A stretch of DNA of 63,515 bases, filler included, from an uncultured virus (IMG/VR IMGVR_UViG_2049941000_000851) (Duplodnaviria; Heunggongvirae; Uroviricota; Caudoviricetes). It is 11 parts of one record of this genome, joined end to end, with 100 filler letters (N's around TTAATTAATTAA, not from the genome) between each part and the next. Parts side by side here need not be neighbours in the genome. Positions count along the whole stretch, not along the records: positions 33,965 to 35,832 come from IMGVR_UViG_2049941000_000851; 10 more parts are not named here. One strand, written 5' to 3'. Every line of letters begins with the position of its first letter. Position 1 is the first letter of the stretch. The translations under genes and the position numbers were made by a program. Under the pieces are notes generated by a model. That model was not told where the DNA came from. It ran no database searches and saw nothing but the letters and a program-made list of their open reading frames with translations. This document shows, in pieces, positions 4,652-59,447 of the stretch.

Positions 4652-5012
4652 TCAGTCTGATTTCTGCGGCAGTTTGCATGTTCTCTTCATCGCAACCGAA
4701 CAGGCGATGTCACCCAATACATTGCAGCAGGTAGCGCCGGCATCCACCAGTATGTTCACACTCACGTACATGCCCATGATCCCGGCAGGCAAACCGGCTA
4801 TGGCCGCAAGTGCGGCAAAAGAGGCGATCGCGCTGTTTGGCACACCCGGAGCGCCTATGCTCAAAAGCGTATTGCTCAGCAGTACAACAGCAAGCAATCC
4901 ATAGGACAGTTCCGTGCCGGTCGCATTGGCGAAGAAAACCACCATAAACGACATGACGATGGACACCGCATCCATGTTGATCGTAGCGCCGAGCGGCAGT
5001 GCGAGGGAGGAG
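4652..5012 (-). CDS. Dicarboxylate/amino acid:cation symporter, C-terminal fragment
   Basis: PLGATINMD, SIGAPGVP, TCCNVLGD. Confidence 0.8.
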
Positions 5013-5022
5013 NNNNNNNNNN

Positions 5023-5466
5023 GAATCTGAACCAGGCCATAACACAGTCTGACAATTCAAAGCTCAAGCCCATCGAACAGGCGCGCAGATACGTTCACGC
5101 CTTGCTGGACGAAAAGGGGCGCGACGCGGTGCCGCGGTGGGTTGTGCTTTGCAATTTTGAAGAATTCCATATCTACGATCTCGACACACCACGGAATGAA
5201 CCGGTGAAGGTACTGCTGAAAGACCTGCCGGATAAATACTATATGCTGGAATTCCTCGTGAAGAAGAAGACAATCATTCAAGAGGAAGAAGAAATATCCT
5301 TCCAGGCAGGCGCGATCGTGGGCAAGCTGTACGACGCCTTCCTGAAGGAGTACAAAGATCCCACGGACGAGCACAGCTTAAAGAGTCTCAACGCCCTGTG
5401 CGTGCGCCTCGTGTTCTGCCTCTACGCGGAGGACGCGGGCGTATTCGGCGGGCACTTGATGTTCCA
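5023..5466 (+). CDS. MmeI-like type IIL restriction-modification enzyme fragment
   Basis: PRWVVLCNFEEFHIYDLD and LCVRLVFCLYAEDAG. Confidence 0.7.
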
Positions 5467-22409: not shown

Positions 22410-22430
22410 TGGAGTAAAGGAGCTTGCGCA

Positions 22431-24747
22431 ATGGGCATCTATGAGAAAATTAAGACTGATATAGCCCAGCCGTACTATGTCGAGAACTTTCCAAATGAAG
22501 GACAGCGGTTTATCGCCTGGTACCTGCGGAACATTCACAATCTCGATACATATGAGGCGAAAGACTGCATCACAGATGGCCCGGGCGACAAGCAGATAGA
22601 TGCTGTATATATTGATGACCAGACGGAAACCATCTATATCATCCAGGGAAAATACTACAGCAGCGTTTCTGTTAACGCGACACCGCTGCGAGAAGTGCTG
22701 TCTTCGTGGACACAGATTCAGGACTTACAACATCTGCAGGAATCCGCCAATGACCATCTCCGGGCAAAAATTGCTGATATTGCTGATGCGCTTGCTGAGG
22801 GATACGAAGTTTCTTTTGAACTGATTACAACATCCACACTGACGGAAAGTGCCTCGCAGGATCTTGATCTGTTCCAGCGGACACTGTCATCTAATGAAGC
22901 GCTGAACGCAAACATGGTGGTCATCGATGAAGAAACATTACAAGTTCGGTACGATGAAGCGCTGAACAAAAACAGACCGTATATCAACCATGAGTTTTCT
23001 GTCGATCCAGCGCAGTGCCTGCAAATGACACTTGCAGGAACGAAGGTTATAATAGAGGCAATTCCGCTGAAAGAATGTGTCCGGATTCCCGGAATCAAGG
23101 ACGGTACACTGTTCCGGAAAAACGTGCGTCAGTCACTCGGCTCTACCAATAAGGTGAATAAGGGAATCGCGCGCACCATTCGGAAGAATGCGGATGAGTT
23201 CTTCTTTCTGCACAACGGCATCACCGCGATCTGCTCCTCCATGACATTGCATGGAAACATCCTCAGCGTGAAAGAACTGAACATTGTCAACGGTTGTCAG
23301 TCCCTCAGCACGATTTACAGTTGCAGCGAGGCGGCAAAGGCTGCCGGTGATGCCTTTATCATGTTTCGGTTTTACGAAATCAGCGATACCGAACGCGCCG
23401 ATGAAATCAGCACCTCCACAAACTCGCAGAGCGCCGTTAAAGCACGGGATCTCCGCAGCAACGATAAATTCGTTCTTGCTATGAAGAAAGCCTACGAGCG
23501 AGTTTTTCCGTACCTNNNNNNNNNNNNNNNNNNNNNNNNNNNNNNNNNNNNNNNNNNNNNNNNNNNNNNNNNNNNNNNNNNNNNNNNNNNNNNNNNNNNN
23601 NNNNNNNNNNNNNNNNNNNNNNNNNNNNNNNNNNNNNNNNNNNNNNNNNNNNNNNNNNNNNNNNNNNNNNNNNNNNNNNNNNNNNNNNNNNNNNNNNNNN
23701 NNNNNNNNNNNNNNNNNNNNNNNNNNNNNNNNNNNNNNNNNNNNNNNNNNNNNNNNNNNNNNNNNNNNNNNNNNNNNNNNNNNNNNNNNNNNNNNNNNNN
23801 NNNNNNNNNNNNNNNNNNNNNNNNNNNNNNNNNNNNNNNNNNNNNNNNNNNNNNNNNNNNNNNNNNNNNNNNNNNNNNNNNNNNNNNACGTCTCTCGGAA
23901 AATGGCTGATTTCCTGGCATTCACAGAGACCGACGATGGCTTACAGCGAAAATCGTGTGTTTGACGTGTACTTCAATCAGCTATTCCAGCGCGATTATGC
24001 GCCGGAGGATATCCAGGCGCTCAACGAGATTTATAAAGCGGTAGTGCCCTGCTGGGACAGCAACAACACGCATGGAATCAATGAAGCGCTGCTGGCGATA
24101 AAGGCCTATGGCACCTTCCACCAGNNNNNNNNNNGGTCGAGCACGGGTGAAGAAATAATGGTTACACCAGCCAACATTGTTGGTTATAATGATCATGCGG
24201 AAATACTTGAAGCAAGAAAGAAAATTATTACACAAAGGCTGTCAAAACTCAGCAGGCAACTCGAAGTGAAAAAGAAGGCTCAAATACTTGAAGATGAGCA
24301 ATTGTCCTTTTTCACAGCACCAAGTATGTTGGAAATTGCCAGCCAAAATATTGCAAGACTTCCACTCGATGCAATCGCTATTNNNNNNNNNNAATATCTG
24401 TTTTATTCTGCGAAATTAACAAGATGCAGGAACTGGTGCCTCGTCCATCCGTGGTTGTTGAAAAGCTGAATCAAAGCGGGCTGATGGACACCGTTGTTGA
24501 CCTGTCGATCCAATGCCTGAATATTGCGTTTGACACAGCATACGAAAACGCAACCGCAGACGGAAAAGTATTTTCCGCGCAGAACTGGAGCAAGTCAAAG
24601 ACGTCGTTGAAGGATATTCGCGGGCAAATCAAGCAGTATTTGTCATCATTGCGTCTGATGCCCGGTGGAAAGGATGTTCTTGATCAGCTGACCAAAGGTC
24701 TGCAAATGCCTAAGGAGGCATTCGAGAGTCGCTGGAGTGCGGATTGA
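22431..24747 (+). CDS. AIPR family protein (gapped)
   Basis: DGPGDKQIDA, IIQGKY, NVRQSLG, FFFLHNGITAIC, IVNGCQS, TNSQSAV. Confidence 0.88.
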
Positions 24748-26656: not shown

Positions 26657-28528
26657 AGCACAGCTCCCGGCAGCCACGGTGGCACTCGTCCCATCTGCTC
26701 ACAGACTGCCTGCAGATCCACACCCTCGCTGGCTTCTATGATCAGCTCATCATGCACATGTCCGCAGATGAAGCAGTGGCTCAGCGTTCGCATGACGTAA
26801 CACAGGATGTCCCTGCTGATTGCTTGAACAATGTTTTCCACAAATTTCGGCCCATAGCTTTCGATTCGTTCCCATTTTTTGGTGGTGCCGACGCCTTCAT
26901 AGGTGACGGATTCCCCGCCGAACTTGTTGATTCCAATCTTCGGTTTCACATAGGCCAACCGCCTGCCGGAGGGCAGGGTGATGAAAAGCATACCGCTTAA
27001 GCAGGTAAAGCGGAGGCCGTGTGTTTCTGTTTCTATCTTTTGCCGGACAGCTTTCTTTACCGATTCATCGACATCCCACCAGAAAGACACAATGTTGGGA
27101 TTGGATTCGCGCCACGCCGTGACCAGCGGCTGAAGTTCCTCCTCCTTCAAGCCCATGTCCAGAGCGCCCATGGCTTTTAAAGCGCCGACACTGCCGCCGT
27201 ATCCACAGTTGTGGACGAGCTTCCCCGATACGGTAAAACGGTGATGTGGTCCGGCATTTCGTATGTCATAAAGTCGAGCCGCGCACTGATGAGCCTCCAG
27301 TTCTTTCTTCTCTCGAGTACTGCCATCTCTGCGTCCCGAATGATCTCGTCTCTGGTCAACCCCTGTGAAAGTTTCCGGACAACAACGTTGCGGACATACG
27401 GCCAGTACTCCTGTGCGAATTCGCTCAGTACTGTATTTCTCCGGTTTGCTTGATTCTGCGCCCTGGTGACAAAGCGGATGTTCCCGGGGGCATAATGACT
27501 GTTCGTATATATCCGATCCAGTTCCAACGCTCTGTCCGGCAACCCGTATCTCCTGATCAGATAAAGTCCCGCTNNNNNNNNNNAGCCTCCGATCCAGCCA
27601 TTTCGGTATCCGCCGGGGCTGTGAACATGCCTGACAGCCTTGAGACTTTCCGCGGGTCAGCAGATCCATGAACTGCCACTGAACAGCGCCGCATCCCGTG
27701 CAGCGAGTCAGCACATAACAGTGATCCCATGTCCGGTTCCAGCGTTTCTCCGGACTGATAATGCTCACCCAGCCGTATTGCCTGCCCACCATTTCCGGTT
27801 TGTAAGAGATGTGCGCCGCTGGCGGCGGCGAATCCAAACTGTACGGGCTCCGATTCCCCCTCAATCCAGATGAAGTGGCCAGGTGTTGCTGTAAGTCCTT
27901 CATATGTGATAACCTCCCGGATTCCATTGTAGACAACGCCTTCATGCTGTACCCACGCTGTACCATCCCATACAAGATCGTCTAACAAAACATCTTCTAT
28001 GGGCTTTTCTCCATGGTTAGTGAGCACAAGTTGGCCTTCGGCAATGCAGGCGAGTTCTGCGATTTTTCCCTTTTGACGAAGATGTCCGTTGACGCCATGC
28101 TTTTCAACCGGAACTTTGAACATTTGACTGGCACTTTGACAGTAGATATCACCGCCACGGGCGAACAAATCTAATCGCCATTGCTCTCCGGCAAGATAAG
28201 CAATCACTCTGGCTTCAATGGCACTGAAGTCGCTGACGATAAACTTGTAACCCGGTTTCGGCACAAACGCCGTCCGGACCAGCTGGCTAAGGGTATCGGG
28301 CACATCCTCATACAGCAACCTGAACATTTCATAGTCGCCGGCCTTGACCAGACTGCGGGCCGCGGCAAGATCGGGAATGTGATTCTGCGGCAAATTCTGC
28401 AACTGCACCAGCCGTCCAGCCCAGCGCCCGGAGCGGTTGGCTCCGTAGAACTGAAACATTCCCCGGCAGCGCCCGTCAGCACAGACGCAATTCTCCATGG
28501 CGATGTACTTCTTCACGCTCGACCGGGC
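26657..28528 (-). CDS. Phage family A DNA polymerase, polymerase domain, intein-containing; N-terminal exonuclease part at 30368-31030
   Basis: FYGANRSGRWAGR, SDFSAIEARV (motif A), RQKGKIAELA/CGYGG (motif B), HVHDE (motif C). Confidence 0.92.
27177..27792 (-). CDS. HNH homing endonuclease in the +1 frame of the intein (start uncertain)
   Basis: MVGRQYGWV...CTGCG...LTRGKSQGCQAC and LELDRIYTNSHYAPGNIRFVTRAQNQANRR. Confidence 0.8.
27208..28048 (-). mobile_element. Intein in polymerase motif B
   Basis: Block A CIAEGQLV, block B TATPGH, blocks F/G LYDIRNAGPHHRFTVSGKLVHN then Cys; removal restores KIAELA-CGYGGSVGAL. Confidence 0.92.
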
Positions 28529-30357: not shown

Positions 30358-31484
30358 NNNNNNNNNNATTCGACTTCCATGCCGTGATCGGCAAGCCATT
30401 GTTTCATCTGCGCAACGGAGTTTGGATTCTCCATCTGCGTCAGCCGCTGCATCTCGGCGGAGAGCTCGTCCCGGGATAGATCGTCAAAGGCTATGGCCTG
30501 TCTGACCATCTCCCTGTCCAGTGCGATGCCCCTGTCGTTTATTTCTTCGGACAGATGGTATTCACTCCAAACGGAATCGGGAACAGGAAAGGCGGCCAGC
30601 TTTTTCTGTATNNNNNNNNNNNNNNNNNNNNNNNNNNNNNNNNNNNNNNNNNNNNNNNNNNNNNNCACCTCAACGTCTCGTTTATTATATTCCTTAAAAA
30701 CAGCCCATTTGTCGGGCGCGTGCTCCGGGAGATTCCATGTCCTGCCGCCGTTAGACGCGGTCGGCTTGCATGGCATGCAGAAATATCGGATGAGCGCCTT
30801 ACCCTCTGTCATTTTCTGGTCTTCCAGTTTCAGCACAGCGCCGACGCCCTGAAGCGATAACGGCAGACCCAGATAAGCCGACCACACCATGGAGCAGCGC
30901 CATGATCGCGGATCGAGATAATTGCCCACGGTGTCCTCCGGTATACCGTAACCACGAAACAGATCAGGACAGTGCTTCCCTAGCCACGCAGACAAACAGA
31001 TACGCTCAAATCCCGCATTAAATGCCCATTNNNNNNNNNNAGAAGCGCGGAAGGATTTCGAGGAGGCAGTTTCATCGACCCTGGAACCGATTCCCTTCGG
31101 AAGATACGATCTTGAGCCGTTCCCCGTAGAAGCCCTTCCCGAGGACATGGGAGATTATGTCCAAGCAGTAGCGGAAAGCACACAGACGGCTGTAGACATG
31201 GCGGGGANNNNNNNNNNNNNNNNNNNNNNNNNNNNNNNNNNNNNNNNNNNNNNNNNNNNNNNNNNNNNNNNNNNNNNNNNNNNNNNNNNNNNNNNNNNNN
31301 NNNNNNNNNNNNNNNNNNNNNNNNNNNNNNNNCCTCCGAATATCTACGCGAATATTATCGCGGAGCCTTCCGAGAGAAAATCCGCGGTACTGCACGCTAC
31401 GGCAAGTCCTCTTGACAACTACGAGGTCAACTACAACATTCAGAACGCGGCGCGTGTGGAAAGCTGCAAAATGANNNNNNNNNN

Positions 31485-33083: not shown

Positions 33084-33255
33084 TGGCACCTCTCCTCTTG
33101 AAATTCCAAATTGTATTCAAATATTATCACATCTATTGCTGTTTGTCAATCACTTAGTGTAAAATTTGAATATTTTATCCAATTAACACATTTGATGTAT
33201 TGACAACGGTTTATCAATCATATATAATTGCCGACACAATAACGTATCGGAGGTA

Positions 33256-33767: not shown

Positions 33768-34158
33768 TCGATCCTCTTCCGAACATCAGCCTAAAGGTTG
33801 AGAGAAGAAGGAAACGATATAGAACTTTCACGTACTAAGTTTATGATCTCGGAGGATTAGTATGNNNNNNNNNNNNNNNNNNNNNNNNNNNNNNNNNNNN
33901 NNNNNNNNTTAATTAATTAANNNNNNNNNNNNNNNNNNNNNNNNNNNNNNNNNNNNNNNNNNNNGTTTCACATCCTTCAGCGTGACTTTGCTGACCATCA
34001 GATTATCATCGCCTCAATCTACGAATACGATCTTACAGAAGTATATAAAATTGAGATAATAAGTCGCCTTGTTGAATAAGCAATGCCTCTCCTCTGGCGT
34101 TCCGAAAGAGAGGCGCTGCTCACTGCTTCTGATAAAATCTGCACTCATNNNNNNNNNN

Positions 34159-34552
34159 GGATGCATTCCATACCATCCACAACTACATCGATACCAATGA
34201 AATGATTCTCAGAAAAGGTGCCATCGCTGCTCATAAAGGTGAAAAGGTACTGATCCCCATCAACATGCGCGACGGGAGTATTCTTGCCATCGGAAAGGGT
34301 AATGAAGACTGGAACTTCTCTGCTCCTCACGGTGCTGGGCGCATCATGTCGCGTACTGCGGCAAAAGAACGCCTTGACATGGAGGAATACCGCAGAGAGA
34401 TGGCCGGTGTGTACACCACGTCAGTCAGTGAGGCCACTCTGGATGAAGCGCCTATGGCTTATAAGTCGCTGGCAGACATCATCGATGTGATCAGTGAGAG
34501 TGTAGACATCATAGAAGTATTGAAACCTATATACAACTTTAAGGCGAACTGA
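34159..34552 (+). CDS. rtcB: RtcB RNA ligase, C-terminal part
   Basis: HNYID, RKGAI, SAPHGAGRIMSR, DEAPMAYK. Confidence 0.92.
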
Positions 34553-34597
34553 GCCGGTTCCTTTCCGGCTCTTCGCCGGAACAGGAGCGGAAATAAA

Positions 34598-34855
34598 ATG
34601 AATCAGATACCGGTCATAGACATGACCGCAACCGGAATAAACATAACCCGCTTGCGAGTAAACGCGGGTATGACAGTGAGAGACCTTCAGGACATTTTCG
34701 GTTTTACCACTCCGCAGGCTATATACAAGTGGCAGCGCGGAACGGCCTTGCCGACGGTAGACAATCTCGTGGTTCTCGCAGTGGTTTTCGGGGTACGGAT
34801 TGACGACATTCTCATTTTTCAAAGGAATGCACAACAGACCCGAATCACCGCATGA
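34598..34855 (+). CDS. XRE-family HTH regulator
   Basis: TVRDLQDIFGFTTPQAIYKWQRGTALPTVDNL. Confidence 0.88.
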   Translation: MNQIPVIDMTATGINITRLRVNAGMTVRDLQDIFGFTTPQAIYKWQRGTALPTVDNLVVLAVVFGVRIDDILIFQRNAQQTRITA

Positions 34856-34887
34856 ATAGACCTCAGCTCTGGCAACAGGGCTGACAT

Positions 34888-34961
34888 GACCCCTTCGACT
34901 AACAGGTCAGGTCACCGCCCTTTCAAGGCGGCAATGCTCGGTTCGAATCCGGCAGGGGCCA
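34888..34961 (+). tRNA. tRNA-Glu(TTC), imperfect
   Basis: Anticodon arm CCGCC-CTTTCAA-GGCGG, TTCGAAT loop; A:C mismatch in acceptor stem, irregular T stem. Confidence 0.75.
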
Positions 34962-34970
34962 TTACAGTAT

Positions 34971-35044
34971 AGTTCCGTAGTGAAGTTGGCTATCACGCCT
35001 GCCTGTCACGCAGGAGATCGTGGGTTCGAGCCCCGTCGGAACTG
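34971..35044 (+). tRNA. tRNA-Asp(GTC)
   Basis: AGTTCCG/CGGAACT acceptor, CCTGC-CTGTCAC-GCAGG, G discriminator. Confidence 0.88.
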
Positions 35045-35050
35045 GAATAT

Positions 35051-35123
35051 GCGTCTTTAGCTCAGTTGGAAGAGCATCGCACTTTTAATGCGAGGGTCCG
35101 GAGTCCGAGCCTCCGAAGGCGCA
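35051..35123 (+). tRNA. tRNA-Lys(TTT), atypical T loop
   Basis: GCGTCTT/AAGGCGC acceptor, TCGCA-CTTTTAA-TGCGA; T loop TCCGAGC. Confidence 0.8.
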
Positions 35124-35131
35124 CTGGTTAT

Positions 35132-35209
35132 GGTGCAGGTAGCTCAGTTGATTAGAGCGCCGGGTTGTGGCCCCGGAGGTCAGCGGTTCGAATCCGCTCT
35201 TGCACCCCA
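35132..35209 (+). tRNA. tRNA-His(GTG) with G-1 and encoded CCA
   Basis: G-GTGCAGG/CTTGCAC-C-CCA, CCGGG-TTGTGGC-CCCGG. Confidence 0.9.
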
Positions 35210-35279
35210 TAGTGCTTTACCGATTCCTCATTTTATCAGGTAATCGCCAATATAAGAGACCAGACTTTTGAGTTTAGCC

Positions 35280-35832
35280 TCAGTCTTTCTTATAAAACTC
35301 GCACTCATATCCATCCGCCCTCAATACTGCCCCTGAAATCCACGGTGGAACGCGGCCCATCTGCCTCTTGAAATTCCAAATTGTATTCNNNNNNNNNNGT
35401 GCCAGCCTCAATAATTAGTTCATCGTGGATGTGTCCGCAGATGAAACAGTGGCTCAGCGTCTGCATTGCATAGCACAGGATGTCTCTGCTGGTCGCCTGC
35501 ACGATGTTTTCAACGAACTTCGGACCATAGCTTTCGATCCGCTCCCATTTTTTCATAGTGCCGACGCCTTCGTAGGTGACAGATTCACCGCCGAACTTGT
35601 TTACACCGATTTTTGGCTTCACATAAGCCAGCCGCCTGCCGGACGGGAGTTGTATGAACAGCATGCTGCTCTTATAAACGAATTGTAAGCCGTGCGTTTC
35701 TGTCATCGTCTGTCCACGGATCGCCTGCTTCACCGCGTCGTCCACATCCCACCATAGCGCCACGATGTTTGGATTGGATTGCCGCCACGCGTTGACCAGC
35801 GGCTGGAGCTCCTCTTCCTTTAATCCCATATC
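35280..35832 (-). CDS. Second family A DNA polymerase copy, C-terminus
   Basis: ESYGPKFVENIVQA, HIHDE, ends LRADGYECEFYKKD*; another polA end (ECRFYQKQ*) lies near 34120-34148. Confidence 0.85.
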
Positions 35833-51993: not shown

Positions 51994-54900
51994 CGGGCAG
52001 ACTGTGCTGCTGGCTCCAGAAGAGGTGCTTCACATCCCCGGCCTCGGTTTCGACGGCGTTATGGGCTACAGTCCCATCGCGCTGGAAAAGAACGCTATCG
52101 GCCTGGGCATCGCTTCTGAGGAATATGGCAGTAAGTTCTTCTCCAACGGCGCGCGGCCTTCCGGTAGGCGCAGCCTACTACTTCATTTTGCATCCATATA
52201 TACTCAACACACTTGATTGGTTGGCAAACAACCTTGCGTTTTCATTCGTGATCGGCTATTTCTTNNNNNNNNNNTCCTTCCGGTATCCTGACGCACCCGA
52301 ACACGGTCAAGAATCCAAAAGCGCTCAGGGAGAGCTGGAACGCGGCTTACGGTGGTTCGTCCAATGCCAACCGCGTGGCAATCCTCGAAGAAGGGATGCG
52401 CTTCGAACCCATCGCGATCCCCAACAACGAAGCGCAGTTTCTCGAGACCCGGAAGTTTCAGGTGGACGAGATCTGCCGCATATTTCGTGTACCTCCGCAT
52501 CTCGTGGGCGATCTGGAGCACGCTACGTTTTCGAACATCGAGCACGTGCGACCGGAAATGTCGCTACTGAAAAGCAAACTAAGGTAATGCGCCGCACATC
52601 AGAGCGGCAGTCAACCTGCCTCACCGCAAGGCGAAAGCCGGATGCAGAGCAATCTGCTGCGGGAACATAGCACGGCAGGAAAGCGGATAACGCGAAAGGA
52701 TATTCAGCGAACAAGGTCCGCAATGACAAAGAAGCATAAGGATAAGGCTGGATTGCCAAAGCAAAGGTTCGTCCCTCTTATGTTGAGGATGCGGAAATTA
52801 TCCTGAAACCGCATTTGTGGCAAACCATGGATACGGTGTTCGTCCATGGGTCTGATAAATAAACGCCACATGACACGCACGAGATTGTGATGAAAGAACC
52901 AAAATGCTATCCGACAGCTTCTACACCTATCAGTAGCGGTAACCGGTGATGACCTAAATGGGCATGCCGCCACAAAGGCGGCTATGGCAGAGGTCTGAAT
53001 AGCCCACATGGTTACGGAACACCCATAGTAGTCTGAGATGGGTAACGCCCATTACATGGCGAAGGGGTGTAGTAAATTCATTCCAAAATGGGAAGATGAA
53101 GGGGAGGAGAAACCTCAATGAATCCAACATCAGAAGTTTTGGAGCGTATCAACAGGAGTTCCAATCAACATCATGATGGGGTCTTCACAAGGCTCTATCG
53201 CTATCTTCTGAGGGAAGATATCTACTATGCGGCTTACCAAAAGCTGTACAGTAACAAGGGTTCAGTAACCAAAGGGGTCGATGATGATACGGCAGATGGA
53301 TTCGGGGACGAATACGTTGCGTCAATCATCGAAGACCTGAAGAACGAAACATTTAAGCCCAAGCCGGTCAGGAGAAAGTATATCCTGAAAGCCAATGGAA
53401 AGCAACGCCCGCTGGGGATTCCATCCTTCCGGGACAAGTTGGTACAGGAAGCGGTCAGAATGATACTGGAAGCTATCTATGAGCCTGTGTTCTACGACCA
53501 GTCTCATGGCTTCCGGCCTAATCGGAGTTGCCACACGGCCTTGAAACAGATCAAGATTGATTTTCATGGCGCAAAATGGTTCATAGAGGGCGACATCAGA
53601 GGATGCTTTGATAACATTAACCACAATGTACTCATTGCTACCCTGGGGAAGAAGATAAAGGACAGTAAATTCCTGAATCTTATAAGGTTATTCCTGAAAG
53701 CTGGGTATGTGGAGGACTTTGAATATCATTCCACGATATCGGGAACTCCACAAGGAGGAATTATTTCTCCCATACTGGCCAATATCTACCTGCATGAACT
53801 GGATGCTAAGGTGATGGAAATCAAAGCCGGTTTCGACTGCCCTTCATCCCGAAGCCAAACGAAGGAATACGTGCATCTGCACACAATAAAGCAGACGTTA
53901 CGGAAGAAAATCGGCGTGGCACAGGGAGAAGAACGGGAAGAATTAATCCGCCAATACAAGGAAGCGGACAAGGCAATGAAATCTACCCCCGCCAAGTGTC
54001 AGGACGATAAGAAGATCGTCTATGTGCGCTATGCGGATGATTTCCTGATCGGCGTTTTCGGATCCCGCAAGGATGCAGAAAGCATAAAGGCCGCTCTGAA
54101 GCAGTTCCTTGCGGATGAATATACGTTGGAACTGAGTGAAGAGAAAACGAAGATCACGCACACGTCGGAACGCGTCCGATTCCTCGGATACGATATAGCG
54201 GTGCGTAGAGACCAAACCTTAAAACGTAGAAAAGACGGAAGAACAGGCAGAACCCTCCTGAACACCGTCGAGTTGACTGCACCCCTCGAAGATAAGGTAA
54301 CAAAGTATCTGTTTGCCCATGAGTTGGTAGCACAGACGCCAGAGGGCAAAATCATACCGATTTCCGTCCCGAGACTGCGCTATCTCCCAGAGGCAGATAT
54401 CGTCAGAAGTTTTGATGCGCAATTCAGAGGTATTTGCAATTATTACCGTCTGGCGGCAAATTACGACAGGCTGATTTTCCTCCAATACATCATGGAATAC
54501 AGCTGTCTGAAAACTTTGGCATCTAAGTTCGACACCACCATCTCAAAGCTGATTAAGAAATATCGGATTAAGGGTGGGTGGGGAATCCCCTACAAGACCA
54601 GAAAAGGTGAAGGGATTGCGAAGATGTCGAAGTTGGCGGACTGTCGTAACGGGAAGCTTTGTATTGATGTTAATCCCTGGTCTTATGTTTCCTACAGAGA
54701 TGGCGCTCTTTCAATACAGAAAAGGCTCTCAACTCACACATGCGAGCTTTGCGGAACGTACTGTGAGCATGTGAAAGTATACCATGCAGGCAGCATGAAG
54801 GAGCTTGATCTGGCTACGCCGTGGGGAGCGAAGATGAAGGCTATTCGGCGCAAAACGCTGGTAGTCTGCGGTGATTGCTATGAACGCATTCACAGNNNNN

Positions 54901-55534
54901 NNNNNNNNNNNNNNNNNNNNNNNNNNNNNNNNNNNNNNNNNNNNNNNNNNNNNNNNNNNNNNNNNNNNNNNNNNNNNNNNNNNNNNNNNNNNNNNNNNNN
55001 NNNNNNNNNNNNNNNNNNNNNNNNNNNNNNNNNNNNNNNNNNNNNNNNNNNNNNNNNNNNNNNNNNNNNNNNNNNNNNNNNNNNNNNNNNNNNNNNNNNN
55101 NNNNNNNNNNNNNNNNNNNNNNNTCCGGTTCTGGAGGGGGTATACGCAAACCTATCGTCGTAAGGCGATAAGGCGGCATGTACCTACCTCACCAGTCCAT
55201 TGATTTCGCCGTGCACTGCATACGGCCATGGCTTGTACGAATCGAACAGTCCATAAACCGGGCGCTCTTTTCCGAACAGGAGAAAGGGCGTTTCTATTGT
55301 CAGTTCAATCTTGACGGACTCATGCGCGGCTCATATAAGGAGCGCATGGAAGGTTATGCAATAGGTCGTCAAAACGGCTTTCTGTCCGCCAACGACATCC
55401 GGCGACTGGAGAATCAGAATCCGATCCCGGCGTCTGAGGGTGGCGATGCCTATCTCGTGAACGGGAATATGCTTGCAATTTCAACCATACTCCAAAACCG
55501 GAGCAAAGAACAGAAATCAGGTGATAACAATTGA
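51994..55534 (+). CDS. HK97-family portal protein interrupted by a group II intron (other 3' exon allele at 58324-58657)
   Basis: EVLHI...GYSPI, FFSNGARPSG, ICRIFRVPPHL, FSNIEH|QSIDFAVHCIRPW. Confidence 0.92.
52546..55192 (+). mobile_element. Group IIA (Ll.LtrB-like) intron
   Basis: 5' GTGCG, 3' CCTACCTCAC, D5/D6 at 55124-55192, EBS2 52780-52784, EBS1 52836-52841. Confidence 0.95.
53118..54895 (+). CDS. ltrA: Intron-encoded RT/maturase with C-terminal En-like domain (stop in gap; about 598 aa judged from copy 2)
   Basis: FTRLYRYLLREDIY, RPLGIP, GTPQGGIISP, RYADD, CELCG...TLVVC. Confidence 0.95.
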
Positions 55535-56376
55535 GAGAAATACAACTAAACGGCTACATCGACGATGAGGTGTGGTTCGGTGATGAGATTACGCCGGATG
55601 CGCTGCACGATCTGTTGTATGCCGAGCGCAAGGACAGGACGGATGATGTTCATATCAGGCTCAACTCCTATGGCGGTTCCTGCAATGCAGCCGTCCGCAT
55701 GCATGATGACCTGGTGGCTTATCCGGGAAAGGTGACCATCACGGTCTCGGGCACGGCTGCCTCCGCTGCTACAGTACTGTGCATGGCTGCGGACAGGCTG
55801 GAGATGACGCCGGGTTCGCTTTGGATGATCCACGATCCATCGATCATAGCTATGGGCAATATCCTCGACCTGAAAGACGCGATCCGTCTTTTGGAAGTCT
55901 GTAAGGAATCCATCCTGAATGTCTATGAGCGTCGCATCAAGATTACCCGTGAACAGGCCGGAACGCTCATGGCAAAGACCACCTGGATGGATGCACAGAA
56001 GGCGCTTGAAGACGGCTTTATCGATGAAATCCTGAGTGTGCGACAGGCAGGCCCAAGCGATTGTGTCGTTTCACAGGCCGATGCCGAAAAGAAAGTGACT
56101 GCGTGGCTGGACAGGCACAGAATCAGCGCGTCGGCAATCGTGGAACGTCCGCATAGGAAGGCCGGAGTGCTCACGGAGACGGATGCGTCGCCCAAGCCAA
56201 CGGTGGCGGACGAAGAAGCTTCTGCTCCGTTGGACGACGACAATAACAACAGCGAACACAACAGCGATGAACCCAACCCCATGCCACAAGGTACCCCAAT
56301 CAGTCAGCTGCAGAAGCGGCTGGCTTTAATTATGCCCTCAGAGGCGAAACGAAAAGGAGAAGACACCCATGAGTAA
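55531..56376 (+). CDS. ClpP-like head maturation protease (second allele from 58654)
   Basis: LNSYGG, AASAAT, MIHDP, TWMDAQKALEDGFIDEI. Confidence 0.92.
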   Translation: MREIQLNGYIDDEVWFGDEITPDALHDLLYAERKDRTDDVHIRLNSYGGSCNAAVRMHDDLVAYPGKVTITVSGTAASAATVLCMAADRLEMTPGSLWMIHDPSIIAMGNILDLKDAIRLLEVCKESILNVYERRIKITREQAGTLMAKTTWMDAQKALEDGFIDEILSVRQAGPSDCVVSQADAEKKVTAWLDRHRISASAIVERPHRKAGVLTETDASPKPTVADEEASAPLDDDNNNSEHNSDEPNPMPQGTPISQLQKRLALIMPSEAKRKGEDTHE

Positions 56377-58156: not shown

Positions 58157-59447
58157 NNNNNNNNNNGGATGATGTGTACGACCATTATCCCGCCGACCGG
58201 CTGATGGTGGACATCCCCATCGCCCTGATGGCTGTGCAGACGGCGACGACAGAGGCCCTGTCCGAATTCCCTATGAAGCCGACAGCGACGGAAACGAAGA
58301 GCGACTGACGCTGNNNNNNNNNNCGATTTTGCGGTGCATTGCATACGGCCGTGGCTGGTACGAATTGAACAGTCTATAAACAGAGCGCTCTTTTCGGAAA
58401 AGGAAAAAGGGCGCTTTTACTGTCAATTCAATCTGGACGGGCTGATGCGCGGTTCATATAAGGAGCGTATGGAGGGCTATGCCATTGGACGGCAAAACGG
58501 TTTCCTGTCCGCTAACGACATCAGACGATTGGAGAATCAGAACCCGATCCCGGCATCAGAGGGAGGAGATGCTTACCTCGTGAATGGGAACATGCTTGCC
58601 ATATCAACCATACTTTCCAACGGGAGTAAAGAACAGAAATCAGGTGATAACAATTGAGAGAAATACAACTAAATGGCTACATAGACGATGAGGTGTGGTT
58701 CGGCGATGAGATCACGCCGGACGCACTTCATGATTTGCTGTATGCCGAAACCAAGGATCACACCGAGGATGTGCATATACGCCTGAACTCTTACGGGGGT
58801 TCGTGCAACGCGGCTGTACGAATGCACGATGATCTGGCGGCGTATCCCGGAAAGGTGATCATAACCATCTCAGGCACGGCTGCTTCCGCGGCGACGGTAT
58901 TTTGCATGGCTGCGGATCAACTGGAAATGACGCCCGGGTCGCTGTGGATGATCCACGATCCGTCCATCATTGCAATGGGCAACGTGCATGACCTGAAGGA
59001 TGCCATCCATTTGCTCGAGGCTTGCAAGNNNNNNNNNNNNNNNNNNNNNNNNNNNNNNNNNNNNNNNNNNNNNNNNNNNNNNNNNNNNNNNNNNNNNNNN
59101 NNNNNNNNNNNNNNNNNNNNNNNNNNNNNNNNNNNNNNNNNNNNNNNNNNNNNNNNNNNNNNNNNNNNNNNNNNNNNNNNNNNNNNNNNNNNNNNNNNNN
59201 NNNNNNNNNNNNNNNNNNNNNNNNNNNNNNNNNNNNNNNNNNNNNNNNNNNNNNNNNNNNNNNNNNNNNNNNNNNNNNNNNNNNNNNNNNNNNNNNNNNN
59301 NNNNNNNNNNNNNNNNNNNNNNNNNNNNNNNNNNNNNNNNNNNNNNNNNNNNNNNNNNNNNNNNNNNNNNNNNNNNNNNNNNNNNNNNNNNNNNNNNNNN
59401 NNNNNNNNNNNNNNNNNNNNNNNNNNNNNNNNNNNNCTTTAAAGACT

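Follow-up and report, generated by a model that had tools for sequence, protein, structure and literature searches.

Background

Long tRNA arrays (L-arrays) of 26-43 genes, as described in PMC8421152 and PMC10272220, spread horizontally, occur on phages as well and share their control with rtcB through a small repressor, the arrays being silent until translational stress induces them; the roles proposed there are to supply and repair tRNAs under such stress. According to a section of PMC7824862, RtcB-type ligases accompany phage tRNAs, including those of jumbo phages. In addition, portions of PMC10264068, PMC11555353 and PMC11464382 report that phage tRNAs rescue infection from tRNA-cutting defences and that T4 mends tRNA-Lys cut by PrrC, and the first of the three treats anticodon-loop changes relative to host tRNAs as a counter-defence trait. 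In PMC11555353 and PMC11464382, on Retron-Eco7 and PARIS, single phage tRNAs neutralise one or the other system experimentally, with no ligase needed.

Here we analyse an rtcB-HTH-tRNA cassette in DNA from an uncultured virus of the Caudoviricetes (IMGVR_UViG_2049941000_000851). The window, that is, the whole stretch analysed, has a length of 63,515 nt and consists of 11 scaffolds with ten 100-base linkers between them, every scaffold having inner N gaps.

Gene content of the cassette

The gap-free stretch carrying the cassette is 1230 bases long (34159-35388). At its left end lies the 3' end of rtcB on the plus strand (34160-34552; the last 130 codons plus the stop), the gene being truncated by a 10-N gap at 34149-34158. 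The fragment matches the Pfam family RtcB (PF01139) over positions 289-425 of 426 (E 3e-25; 89.7 bits, cut-off 27) and the PHROG tRNA splicing ligase (E 1e-54), so that the rtcB of the initial annotation is borne out as the C-terminal part of the protein. It aligns to residues 371-464 of P. horikoshii RtcB and retains the nucleotide-accepting HGAGR histidine: the codon at 34328-34330 corresponds to residue 404 of the P. horikoshii enzyme, the histidine that carries GMP. The RtcB proteins of relatives have 403-431 residues. As the window holds the last 130 codons only, it is the loose ends of the contigs, which run on as coding sequence upstream of 34159, that point to an intact rtcB. A quick RtcB tree over 130 columns placed the window copy among host genes, with no strongly supported fork nearby, and PADLOC has no model matching RtcB.

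The next gene (34598-34855, plus strand, 85 codons) had been annotated as XRE, and its product indeed matches Pfam HTH_3 (34.1 bits, cut-off 23), as well as HTH_26 (23 bits, cut-off 22). For the same protein PADLOC gave only a weak match to RmrA (17.9 bits), confined to the HTH part. A homolog lies 30-300 bases 3' of rtcB in 41 of the 73 bacterial and seven of the 81 viral loci examined; the HTH gene is a conserved partner of rtcB. The GCAA-loop hairpin noticed earlier at 34863-34884 (plus strand) ends two bases 5' of tRNA-Glu and was recovered by folding, with nine pairs including one G-U, an MFE of -14.9 and a z score of -4.75 against shuffles. In the related locus L004 every stem position is paired, and a stable hairpin is present at the equivalent place in 14 of 19 loci, with unrelated stem sequences; it is place and structure that are conserved, and not sequence. 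A consensus scan of 34159-35388 revealed neither a promoter-like site nor a plus-strand terminator in the interval from rtcB to the tRNAs. The Rfam scan of the scaffold returned tRNAs and nothing further, and around rtcB in eight relatives the same search added to the tRNAs no more than one cobalamin riboswitch, in L001.

Four tRNA genes follow on the plus strand. ARAGORN located them at 34887-35209 with the anticodons previously assigned, all with U35: tRNA-Glu(UUC) (34887-34962; Rfam 47.2 bits), tRNA-Asp(GUC) (34970-35045; 61.8 bits), tRNA-Lys(UUU) (35051-35124; 63.0 bits) and tRNA-His(GUG) (35133-35209; 65.5 bits). Their Rfam scores of 47.2-65.5 bits are above the gathering score of 29, and the anticodon loops are of standard form. 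Both G-1 and CCA are encoded in tRNA-His. Full function of the set is an assumption, because CCA is not encoded in the other three genes, tRNA-Glu has one non-standard pair (A2-C71), and the T loop of tRNA-Lys has C at position 55, where U55 is usual. In the independent run X3, tRNA-Asp is missing from one contig.

Relatives in chromosomes and phages

The synteny search proposed in the initial annotation showed that the unit of rtcB, HTH gene, hairpin and tRNAs recurs in Clostridia, mostly in chromosomes and among housekeeping genes. The arrays have a recurrent order, with tRNA-Glu(UUC) usually first and tRNA-Tyr last. The closest relatives are the loci L094 and L004, with 90% identity in RtcB and 91-92% in the HTH protein, where rtcB, the HTH gene and the hairpin are followed by 18 and 17 tRNAs, respectively. 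The four tRNAs of the window keep the order of these two arrays, and the array copies are their best matches at 76-87% identity (86-87% between tRNA-Glu and the first tRNA of both arrays). L094 is a core chromosome locus, flanked by EF-Ts and TrmO on one side and by RlmN, RsmB, Fmt, PriA and CdaA on the other. Its genome (G006), which has the cassette closest to that of the window, contains 41 tRNAs outside the array covering 19 amino acids, and the array is therefore redundant.

In the related phage L010 the order is polA, two ORFs, rtcB, HTH gene, deoxyribosyltransferase and primase-helicase, and tRNAs are absent. There polA and the cassette are co-directional, whereas they are convergent in the window; linkage of polA to rtcB-HTH is also seen in L012 and L013. 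G001 is listed as viral; it has a mosaic make-up, with recombinase genes on either side of its cassette. Searches with the polA fragment of the window gave no match in G001, G003 and G004 and only distant polymerases (39-45% identity) in the L094-L097 and L170 genomes; these records are incomplete, and the negatives are therefore no evidence of absence.

The polA junction and the assembly

The convergent polA gene of the initial annotation is present next to the cassette as its 3' end (35280-35363, minus strand; the last 27 codons plus the stop), of the phage-type family-A kind. Of the 27 residues encoded at 35283-35363, 20 are the same as in the C-terminus of the L010 polA, and the tail also matches the C-terminus of the other polA copy in the window. 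The stop codon (35280-35282) lies 70 bases past tRNA-His, and the spacer is unique. Reading 35283-35360 as a short free-standing ORF, preceded by a ribosome-binding site of its own, was rejected, since the segment matches the polA C-terminus. Because the last 27 codons and the stop lie on the gap-free piece of the cassette, the junction is independent of the 10-N gap beyond it. On the far side of this gap, a 144-codon body fragment of the same polA (35399-35832, minus strand), which ends in the motif HDELIIEA, matches the PHROG DNA polymerase phrog_10285 (positions 138-282 of 321, E 3e-58); its identity is 83% to the other polA copy of the window (26659-27573) and 71-73% to the L010 and L012 polA. 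The description of the locus as one contig thus holds for 34159-35388; outside it, 10-N gaps cut off rtcB and the polA body.

Read data, called for earlier as a check on the junction, gave a divided answer. Contigs from X1 and X2 (35158/35162-35311), two runs of one sample that is probably the source of the window, join tRNA-His to polA without a mismatch, and contigs of both runs bridge the polA body across the gap to 35294. Depth is similar in the two, at 15-16 in the contigs joining tRNA-His to polA and 12.7-14.2 in the polA contig. In the independent run X3, however, tRNA-His is followed by other sequence and not by polA. Scaffold stretches without contig cover in X3 and X6 were not counted as absence. 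In one sample, then, the gap-free piece and the bridging contigs make the cassette physically continuous with the C-terminus of a phage polA.

The window is strain-mixed, with short scaffolds joined end to end and several phages within. The first piece of the scaffold (33965-34148, 184 bases, no strand assigned) is foreign and not part of the cassette: in X1 it lies within a 4615-base contig (depth 22.6), followed by 116 other letters and then a polA variant 84% like 35432-35643, and the cassette is not between them. It belongs beside this different polA variant, and the scaffold is wrongly joined there. At the opposite edge of the gap-free stretch, 24 bases (35365-35388, no strand assigned) are not readable as polA. 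They recur at 33085-33118 on another scaffold (blastn, 91% over 35 bases), and the gap-bridging contigs of X1 and X2 differ from them at 10-12 clustered positions; the segment is probably an assembly tip or a variant. In a strain-mixed bin, neighbourhoods across N gaps need read support. In the RNA runs X19 and X20, a fraction of 0.05 of the sampled words was present.

The initial annotation had regarded the cassette as element-borne, and had named a core-chromosomal location at an att site or a chimeric join as grounds for abandoning this view. The unit is indeed core-chromosomal in many Clostridia and one join in the scaffold is wrong; the element-borne view is still supported by the contiguous polA 3' end, by the contigs of X1 and X2 and by the rtcB-HTH pair in the replication module of phage L010. 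A host flank at an att site was rejected for the window, because the neighbour there is polA; in L094 a Xer-like integrase follows the array, and then core genes. The word prophage goes further than these data.

Possible origin and function

On balance, and with reserve, we favour the cassette being a shortened phage-borne copy of a bacterial operon of RtcB plus spare tRNAs, captured from a host. A rumen phage would have taken up the chromosomal Clostridia unit of rtcB, XRE-type regulator gene, hairpin and spare tRNA array, placed it tail-to-tail with its family-A polA, and kept four of roughly 17-18 tRNAs in their original order. We suggest that a single transcript covers rtcB, the HTH gene and the tRNAs, starting at a promoter 5' of rtcB which the HTH protein may control. 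RNase P cutting at the 5' end of tRNA-Glu would leave an mRNA ending in the hairpin, which could shield the rtcB-HTH message from 3' exonucleases. The four tRNAs would supplement decoding of Glu, Asp, Lys and His codons, and RtcB would seal breaks in tRNAs or rRNA that have a 2',3'-cyclic phosphate and a 5'-OH. In combination, these parts might sustain translation during infection, when shortage could arise from the codon demand of the phage or from tRNA-cutting defences of the host. Calling it a tRNA repair and replacement module, as was done earlier, agrees with the parts and with a type of system already described (PMC7824862, PMC8421152). The cassette would be a translation-maintenance module of that known type, for which an anti-defence role is plausible.

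A dedicated counter-defence function may be entertained tentatively. Here U35 tRNAs with modified wobble bases would replace the classes most often cut by anticodon nucleases, and RtcB would reseal the broken ones. The U35 bias first noted in the four window tRNAs extends to relatives, at 28 of the 34 tRNAs in 14 small arrays after rtcB-HTH and, in the L094 genome, at 10 of 18 in the array against eight of 41 among the dispersed tRNAs (Fisher p 0.012), but these counts are not independent, since the arrays share ancestry. Moreover, four U35 tRNAs out of four would be drawn at random from the relatives' arrays with a chance of 0.07-0.09, and the long arrays also contain Leu, Ser, Phe, Cys, Trp, Met and Arg tRNAs. 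Glu-UUC, Asp-GUC, Lys-UUU and His-GUG are classes cut by known nucleases. At position 38 the Glu and His anticodon loops of the array and window copies are unlike those of the housekeeping copies, whereas the Lys loop is unchanged and the Asp loop of the window is the same as the housekeeping Asp loop, with G006 as stand-in host. In G001 the surroundings of the cassette include a defence island that encodes a HEPN protein. However, the module is mostly chromosomal, and there it cannot be anti-host.

Plain codon supply is a possibility that we hold just as loosely: a phage of lower GC content than its host would need more decoders of GAA, AAA and other frequent codons, with rtcB and the HTH gene carried along as neighbours. 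In the phage ORFs of the window (54% GC), a mixture of several phages, GAA and AAA occur at 38.4 and 23.4 per 1000 codons, compared with 13.4 and 11.9 in the housekeeping genes of G006 (63% GC), the closest host candidate, which was chosen for its cassette alone and may not be the host of the phage. This 2-3-fold higher use fits codon supply equally well as the U35 bias fits counter-defence. In addition, of the Glu and Lys isoacceptors in the relatives' arrays the phage has retained UUC and UUU and not CUC and CUU, and 19.9% of its codons are for Glu, Asp or Lys. On the other hand, His is rare (2.1%), with the same use of CAC and CAT in the phage ORFs and in G006, and phage L010 keeps rtcB-HTH without any tRNA, which argues that rtcB is no mere passenger.

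A broader reading, which appears improbable, would see RtcB-linked spare arrays in Clostridia and their phages as a specialised replace-and-repair answer to anticodon-loop RNases. The RNases countered would be of the PrrC/RloC-like or HEPN kind, with type VI CRISPR effectors, through their collateral activity, as a further possibility; the arrays would be enriched in NAN-decoding tRNAs preferred by such RNases, with the XRE protein as the switch. Through the conserved hairpin just 5' of the first tRNA, ligase mRNA stability might be tied to the cutting of the array by RNase P, and phages would steal a minimal version against tRNA cleavage in abortive infection.

It is quite unlikely that the cassette is host chromosome and its polA neighbourhood an assembly chimera or a prophage-host border: although its relatives are chromosomal, the cassette of the mosaic G001 is flanked by recombinase genes and the strain-mixed scaffold has one demonstrated wrong join and a doubtful gap edge, tRNA-His, the spacer and the 27 polA codons share one gap-free piece, single contigs of X1 and X2 span 35158-35311 at the depths given above, and polA is a replication-module gene, linked elsewhere to rtcB-HTH, and not the usual end of a prophage.

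A compact operon in cis, common to Clostridia of gut and rumen and to phages of these bacteria, would offer a tractable model both for translation in cells and viruses with scarce or cut tRNAs and for the way phages acquire such kits from hosts. The recurrent order and the U35 bias would give a testable hint at the tRNAs at risk in these bacteria.

Comparison with known systems

The cassette resembles the L-arrays in its redundant tRNA set, its tie to rtcB, its small DNA-binding regulator (predicted here), its horizontal spread and its occurrence in phages. Redundancy to a complete housekeeping set, as in L-arrays, was found in the relative G006. In contrast to the L-arrays, rtcB, the regulator gene and the array stand here in cis in one apparent operon, the regulator is of the XRE/HTH_3 and not the ribbon-helix-helix type, and the hosts are Clostridia, although the L-array neighbourhood tables of PMC8421152 might already include Clostridia. 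The arrays are also shorter, with four tRNAs in the window, 17 in L004 and 18 in L094, all below the range of L-arrays.

With the RtcR-controlled rtcBA operon of E. coli and Salmonella (PMC7790460) the cassette shares RtcB as the RNA-repair effector for damaged tRNA. It differs in having neither rtcA nor the sigma-54 activator RtcR, in the small HTH gene downstream and in the tRNA genes within the unit.

Like T4 with Pnk/Rnl1 against PrrC, and like jumbo phages with RtcB-like ligases, the phage would combine tRNAs of its own with a ligase that can rejoin cleaved tRNAs. Unlike those sets, the cassette is small, has no known cognate nuclease and sits in a phage of apparently ordinary size whose replication module has a family-A polA; evidently it was copied from a host operon, regulator and hairpin included. 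The Retron-Eco7 and PARIS cases likewise involve phage-borne tRNA copies of classes depleted by a defence, Tyr and, reportedly, Lys in those instances. The window differs in being without tRNA-Tyr, a common member of the relatives' arrays, and in that the role of its tRNAs is read from sequence.

Gene content of the cassette

The gap-free piece at 34159-35388 begins inside rtcB, whose last 130 residues (34160-34552, + strand) match positions 289-425 of 426 in Pfam RtcB (E 3e-25). This fragment was aligned to residues 371-464 of P. horikoshii RtcB, and its HGAGR histidine falls on residue 404, the residue that carries GMP. An 85-residue Pfam HTH_3 protein is encoded downstream on the same strand (34598-34855), so that both the rtcB and the XRE gene reported upstream of the tRNAs in the initial annotation are present; PADLOC holds no model for the window RtcB or HTH protein. 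The four tRNAs named there were also recovered by ARAGORN, all on the + strand and exactly four in the whole window, with Rfam scores well above the tRNA gathering score of 29: tRNA-Glu(UUC) at 34887-34962 (47.2 bits), tRNA-Asp(GUC) at 34970-35045 (61.8 bits), tRNA-Lys(UUU) at 35051-35124 (63.0 bits) and tRNA-His(GUG) at 35133-35209 (65.5 bits). The T loop of tRNA-Lys has C in place of the near-universal U55, and the encoded CCA is missing from three of the four genes and present in all host-array copies. A scan of 34159-35388 found zero promoter-like sites and zero + strand terminators.

Scaffold structure and the polA junction

The cassette had been described as lying on one contig, which holds for the gap-free piece 34159-35388 but not for the window, which is 11 scaffolds separated by ten 100-base linkers (44 N, TTAATTAATTAA, 44 N), with further N gaps inside each scaffold. 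The cassette scaffold has 1868 bases (33965-35832) in three pieces, 33965-34148, 34159-35388 and 35399-35832. In a PHROG scan of 86 ORFs, phage genes were spread over the whole window, and several functions were repeated across different scaffolds: three polA pieces (26659-28528, 30369-31028 and 35399-35832), two exonuclease pieces, and portal plus protease at both 55172-56373 and 58325-59028. Because of this recurrence, and because the polA piece beside the cassette is 83% identical to the window copy at 26659-27573, the window is judged to be a strain-mixed or multi-phage bin. Other scaffolds of the bin carry an AbiU-like abortive-infection protein at 22410-23513 (PADLOC 109 bits; PHROG Abi alpha-like) and, amid head genes, a group II intron-type reverse transcriptase at 53100-54893 (PHROG reverse transcriptase E 4e-109; PADLOC 'HEase' 626 bits).

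The polA body (35399-35832, - strand; PHROG DNA polymerase, E 3e-58) lies beyond a 10-N gap, and the 27 C-terminal residues before the stop codon are encoded at 35283-35363 (- strand) in another frame. Of these 27 residues, 20 are shared with the polA C-terminus of L010, a related phage, and the other window copy also matches them; the polA end therefore shares the gap-free piece with the tRNAs, 70 bases from tRNA-His, in the convergent arrangement first proposed. At the gap edge, 24 bases (35365-35388) give no polA reading; they are found again on another scaffold at 33085-33118, in the intergenic region upstream of a - strand gene starting near 33085.

Part of the cassette piece is present in twenty public sequencing runs. 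The best were bovine gut metagenomes, X1 and X2, with 0.92 and 0.65 of the sampled words, both from one sample. When Logan contigs of X1, X2, X3 and X6 were aligned to the cassette scaffold, tRNA-His was joined to polA with zero mismatch by X1 record 6 (35158-35311) and X2 record 14 (35162-35311), and the gap was bridged by X1 record 7 (35294-35777) and X2 record 15 (35294-35806). The bridging contigs are 7 letters shorter than the window, lack the shared stretch of ~25 bases and show 10-12 differences clustered in 35368-35387. It follows that polA is continuous, and the edge is probably an assembly-graph tip, a variant or a recombination joint. In X1 the listed cassette contigs have depths of 14-21, similar to the polA contig (12.7). 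The junction that the initial annotation asked to have checked is supported by contigs of one sample, probably the window's own source. The first join of the scaffold is without support, since the piece 33965-34148 is part of a 4615-base X1 contig (depth 22.6) that continues with 116 other letters into a polA variant 84% like 35432-35643. In X3, an independent bovine gut study, rtcB-HTH is found at 96-99% identity and tRNA-His is followed by other sequence. One X3 contig runs from tRNA-Glu to the spacer just before tRNA-Lys, skipping tRNA-Asp (window 34957-35047); therefore, array content differs between strains. The initial annotation was largely right, but placed too much trust in the scaffold.

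Recurrence of the unit

The RtcB fragment matched 359 viral contigs and, in bacterial genomes, 576 places; the best 80 of each were kept. The tally was limited to loci with 700 bases or more of sequence after rtcB, which removed two viral and seven bacterial loci, and duplicates (L084-L088) were left out. Within these best-match sets, an HTH homolog lies 30-300 bases after rtcB in 41 of 73 bacterial and 7 of 81 viral loci, and a tRNA array follows rtcB-HTH directly in 14 and 3 of them. Glu(UUC) is the first tRNA in 12 of these 17 arrays. The 14 arrays with six tRNAs or fewer hold 34 tRNAs in total, namely Glu-UUC (11), Tyr-GUA (10), Glu-CUC, His-GUG and Ser-GCU (3 each), and single copies of Phe, Leu-CAG, Ser-UGA and Lys-UUU. 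In nine bacterial loci (L100, L104, L116, L117, L119, L135, L155, L164 and L170) a tRNA also lies directly upstream of rtcB, ~1.1-1.5 kb before its stop (Lys-UUU in four, Leu-UAG in three); rtcB-HTH therefore appears to be embedded in a tRNA operon. The closest relatives among the best matches are L004, a viral contig, and L094, in a Clostridiales genome (RtcB 90%, HTH 91-92% identity), with arrays of 17 and 18 tRNAs in which the window's four keep their relative order. The tRNA-Asp of the L094 array (4962-5035) has the anticodon loop CUGUCUA, with U37 where a purine is usual.

A conserved hairpin before the first tRNA

The GCAA-loop hairpin at 34863-34884 (+ strand) folds as first described, with 9 pairs, MFE -14.9 and z -4.75, and together with tRNA-Glu aligns directly to L004. 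The 32 bases that precede the first tRNA were folded in 19 loci, namely the window, the 17 loci with arrays, and L110. A stable hairpin (z < -2, MFE -11 to -15.7), with its end 2-7 bases from the first tRNA, forms in 14 of the 19 loci: the window, L004, L094, L105, L110, L117-L119, L124, L130, L135, L150, L153 and L170. Stems are of unrelated sequence between loci and loops are often GNRA, so the hairpin is conserved in structure, not in sequence. The pre-tRNA segments also differ in fold stability from coding sequence of these loci, sampled as 744 windows (Mann-Whitney p 3e-8). Among the five exceptions, L006 and L097 have tRNA-like sequence just upstream of the first called tRNA, a sign that in at least these two the real first tRNA escaped ARAGORN. 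No T run follows the hairpin, and it is therefore not a standard terminator. It might instead protect an mRNA 3' end created by an RNase P cut; alternatively, it might be a processing site. In a narrow literature search we came across no published description of a conserved hairpin before the first tRNA after rtcB-HTH.

Host chromosome or phage

According to Pfam annotation, the flanks of the examined bacterial loci are ordinary chromosomal neighbours: GreA and LysRS (L170); pyrD, pyrE and cysteine synthesis genes (L118); glycoside hydrolases (L105, L164); a two-component system and a bile-salt-hydrolase-like gene (L106); and HflX and a sugar kinase (L123). L094 is flanked on one side by EF-Ts, a sigma factor and TrmO, and on the other by PP2C, RlmN, RsmB, Fmt, PriA and CdaA. 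Its genome, G006, the closest host candidate, has 58 tRNA matches above cut-off. Outside the array, ARAGORN typed 41 tRNAs that cover 19 amino acids, with Glu-UUC, Asp, both Lys, His and Tyr among them. This makes the rtcB-linked array redundant and its tRNAs a spare set. The window tRNAs are 76-87% identical to the L094/L004 array copies versus 64-74% to the dispersed copies.

The viral side is mixed. G001, the record listed as viral that holds L004 and L089-L091, is a 56.7 kb mosaic, with tail genes, two serine recombinases and unknown ORFs before the cassette, and a recombinase, a defence island (HamA with helicase, a type III restriction-modification system, HEPN_Swt1 and SNF2) and phage recombination genes after it; part of the record is probably host DNA lying between integrated elements. 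A cobalamin riboswitch in L001, deposited as phage (19690-19893, 96 bits), hints at bacterial chromosome there as well. L010, a provirus by its source's label, encodes on one strand polA, two small ORFs, rtcB, HTH, a nucleoside deoxyribosyltransferase and a primase-helicase, and is without tRNAs. With its polA 71% identical to that of the window, this layout indicates that rtcB-HTH is truly phage-borne in this polA lineage. In a quick RtcB tree (111 fragments, 130 columns, leaving out viral L031-L083 and matches no longer than 120 residues), the window groups with L094, L095, L096 and L004, and L010, L012 and L013 stand elsewhere, beside L162, with no strongly supported fork near the window. 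This suggests, but does not establish, that the two lineages took up rtcB separately from hosts. On balance, we lean towards a small cassette that is carried by a phage and derived from a chromosomal operon of RtcB and spare tRNAs.

What the tRNAs are for

That the tRNAs were kept for codon supply is a plausible reading, though less likely than not: GAA and AAA are 2.9 and 2.0 times as frequent in the phage ORFs (54% GC) as in housekeeping genes of G006 (63% GC), taken as a stand-in host, and the UUC and UUU isoacceptors are those the phage kept. The same codon usage and kept isoacceptors weaken a purely defensive reading, and a role in counter-defence against tRNA-cutting host systems is about as likely as codon supply. 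The tendency of the window tRNAs to have U at anticodon position 35, on which that proposal drew, is real and extends to relatives, with 28 of 34 tRNAs in the small arrays after rtcB-HTH and, in the L094 genome, 10 of 18 array tRNAs versus 8 of 41 dispersed copies (Fisher p 0.012), counts that share ancestry in both cases; four such tRNAs would, however, be drawn by chance from the relatives' arrays with a probability of 0.07-0.09. When anticodon loops of array and window copies are compared with those of the housekeeping tRNAs, position 38 of Glu and His is the only difference.

Comparison with known systems

Within a narrow search of the literature, no description turned up of the cis order rtcB-XRE-hairpin-tRNA in Clostridia, or of a phage copy. 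According to PMC7824862, the tRNAs of jumbo phages come with RtcB-like and ATP-grasp ligases as a supplement, and these ligases rejoin tRNAs that have been cleaved. Phage tRNAs are an established answer to tRNA-cutting defences (PMC10264068, PMC11555353, PMC11464382 and PMC12673091). Long tRNA arrays (L-arrays), according to PMC8421152 and PMC10272220, spread horizontally, occur on plasmids, conjugative elements and phages, and are silent until translation stress, with the repressor TrcR co-regulating them with rtcB. The window cassette resembles these arrays as a putatively spare tRNA set tied to rtcB, and resembles the phage tRNA and ligase sets as phage-carried tRNAs with an RtcB ligase gene; both systems are known, and the cassette is a variant of them.
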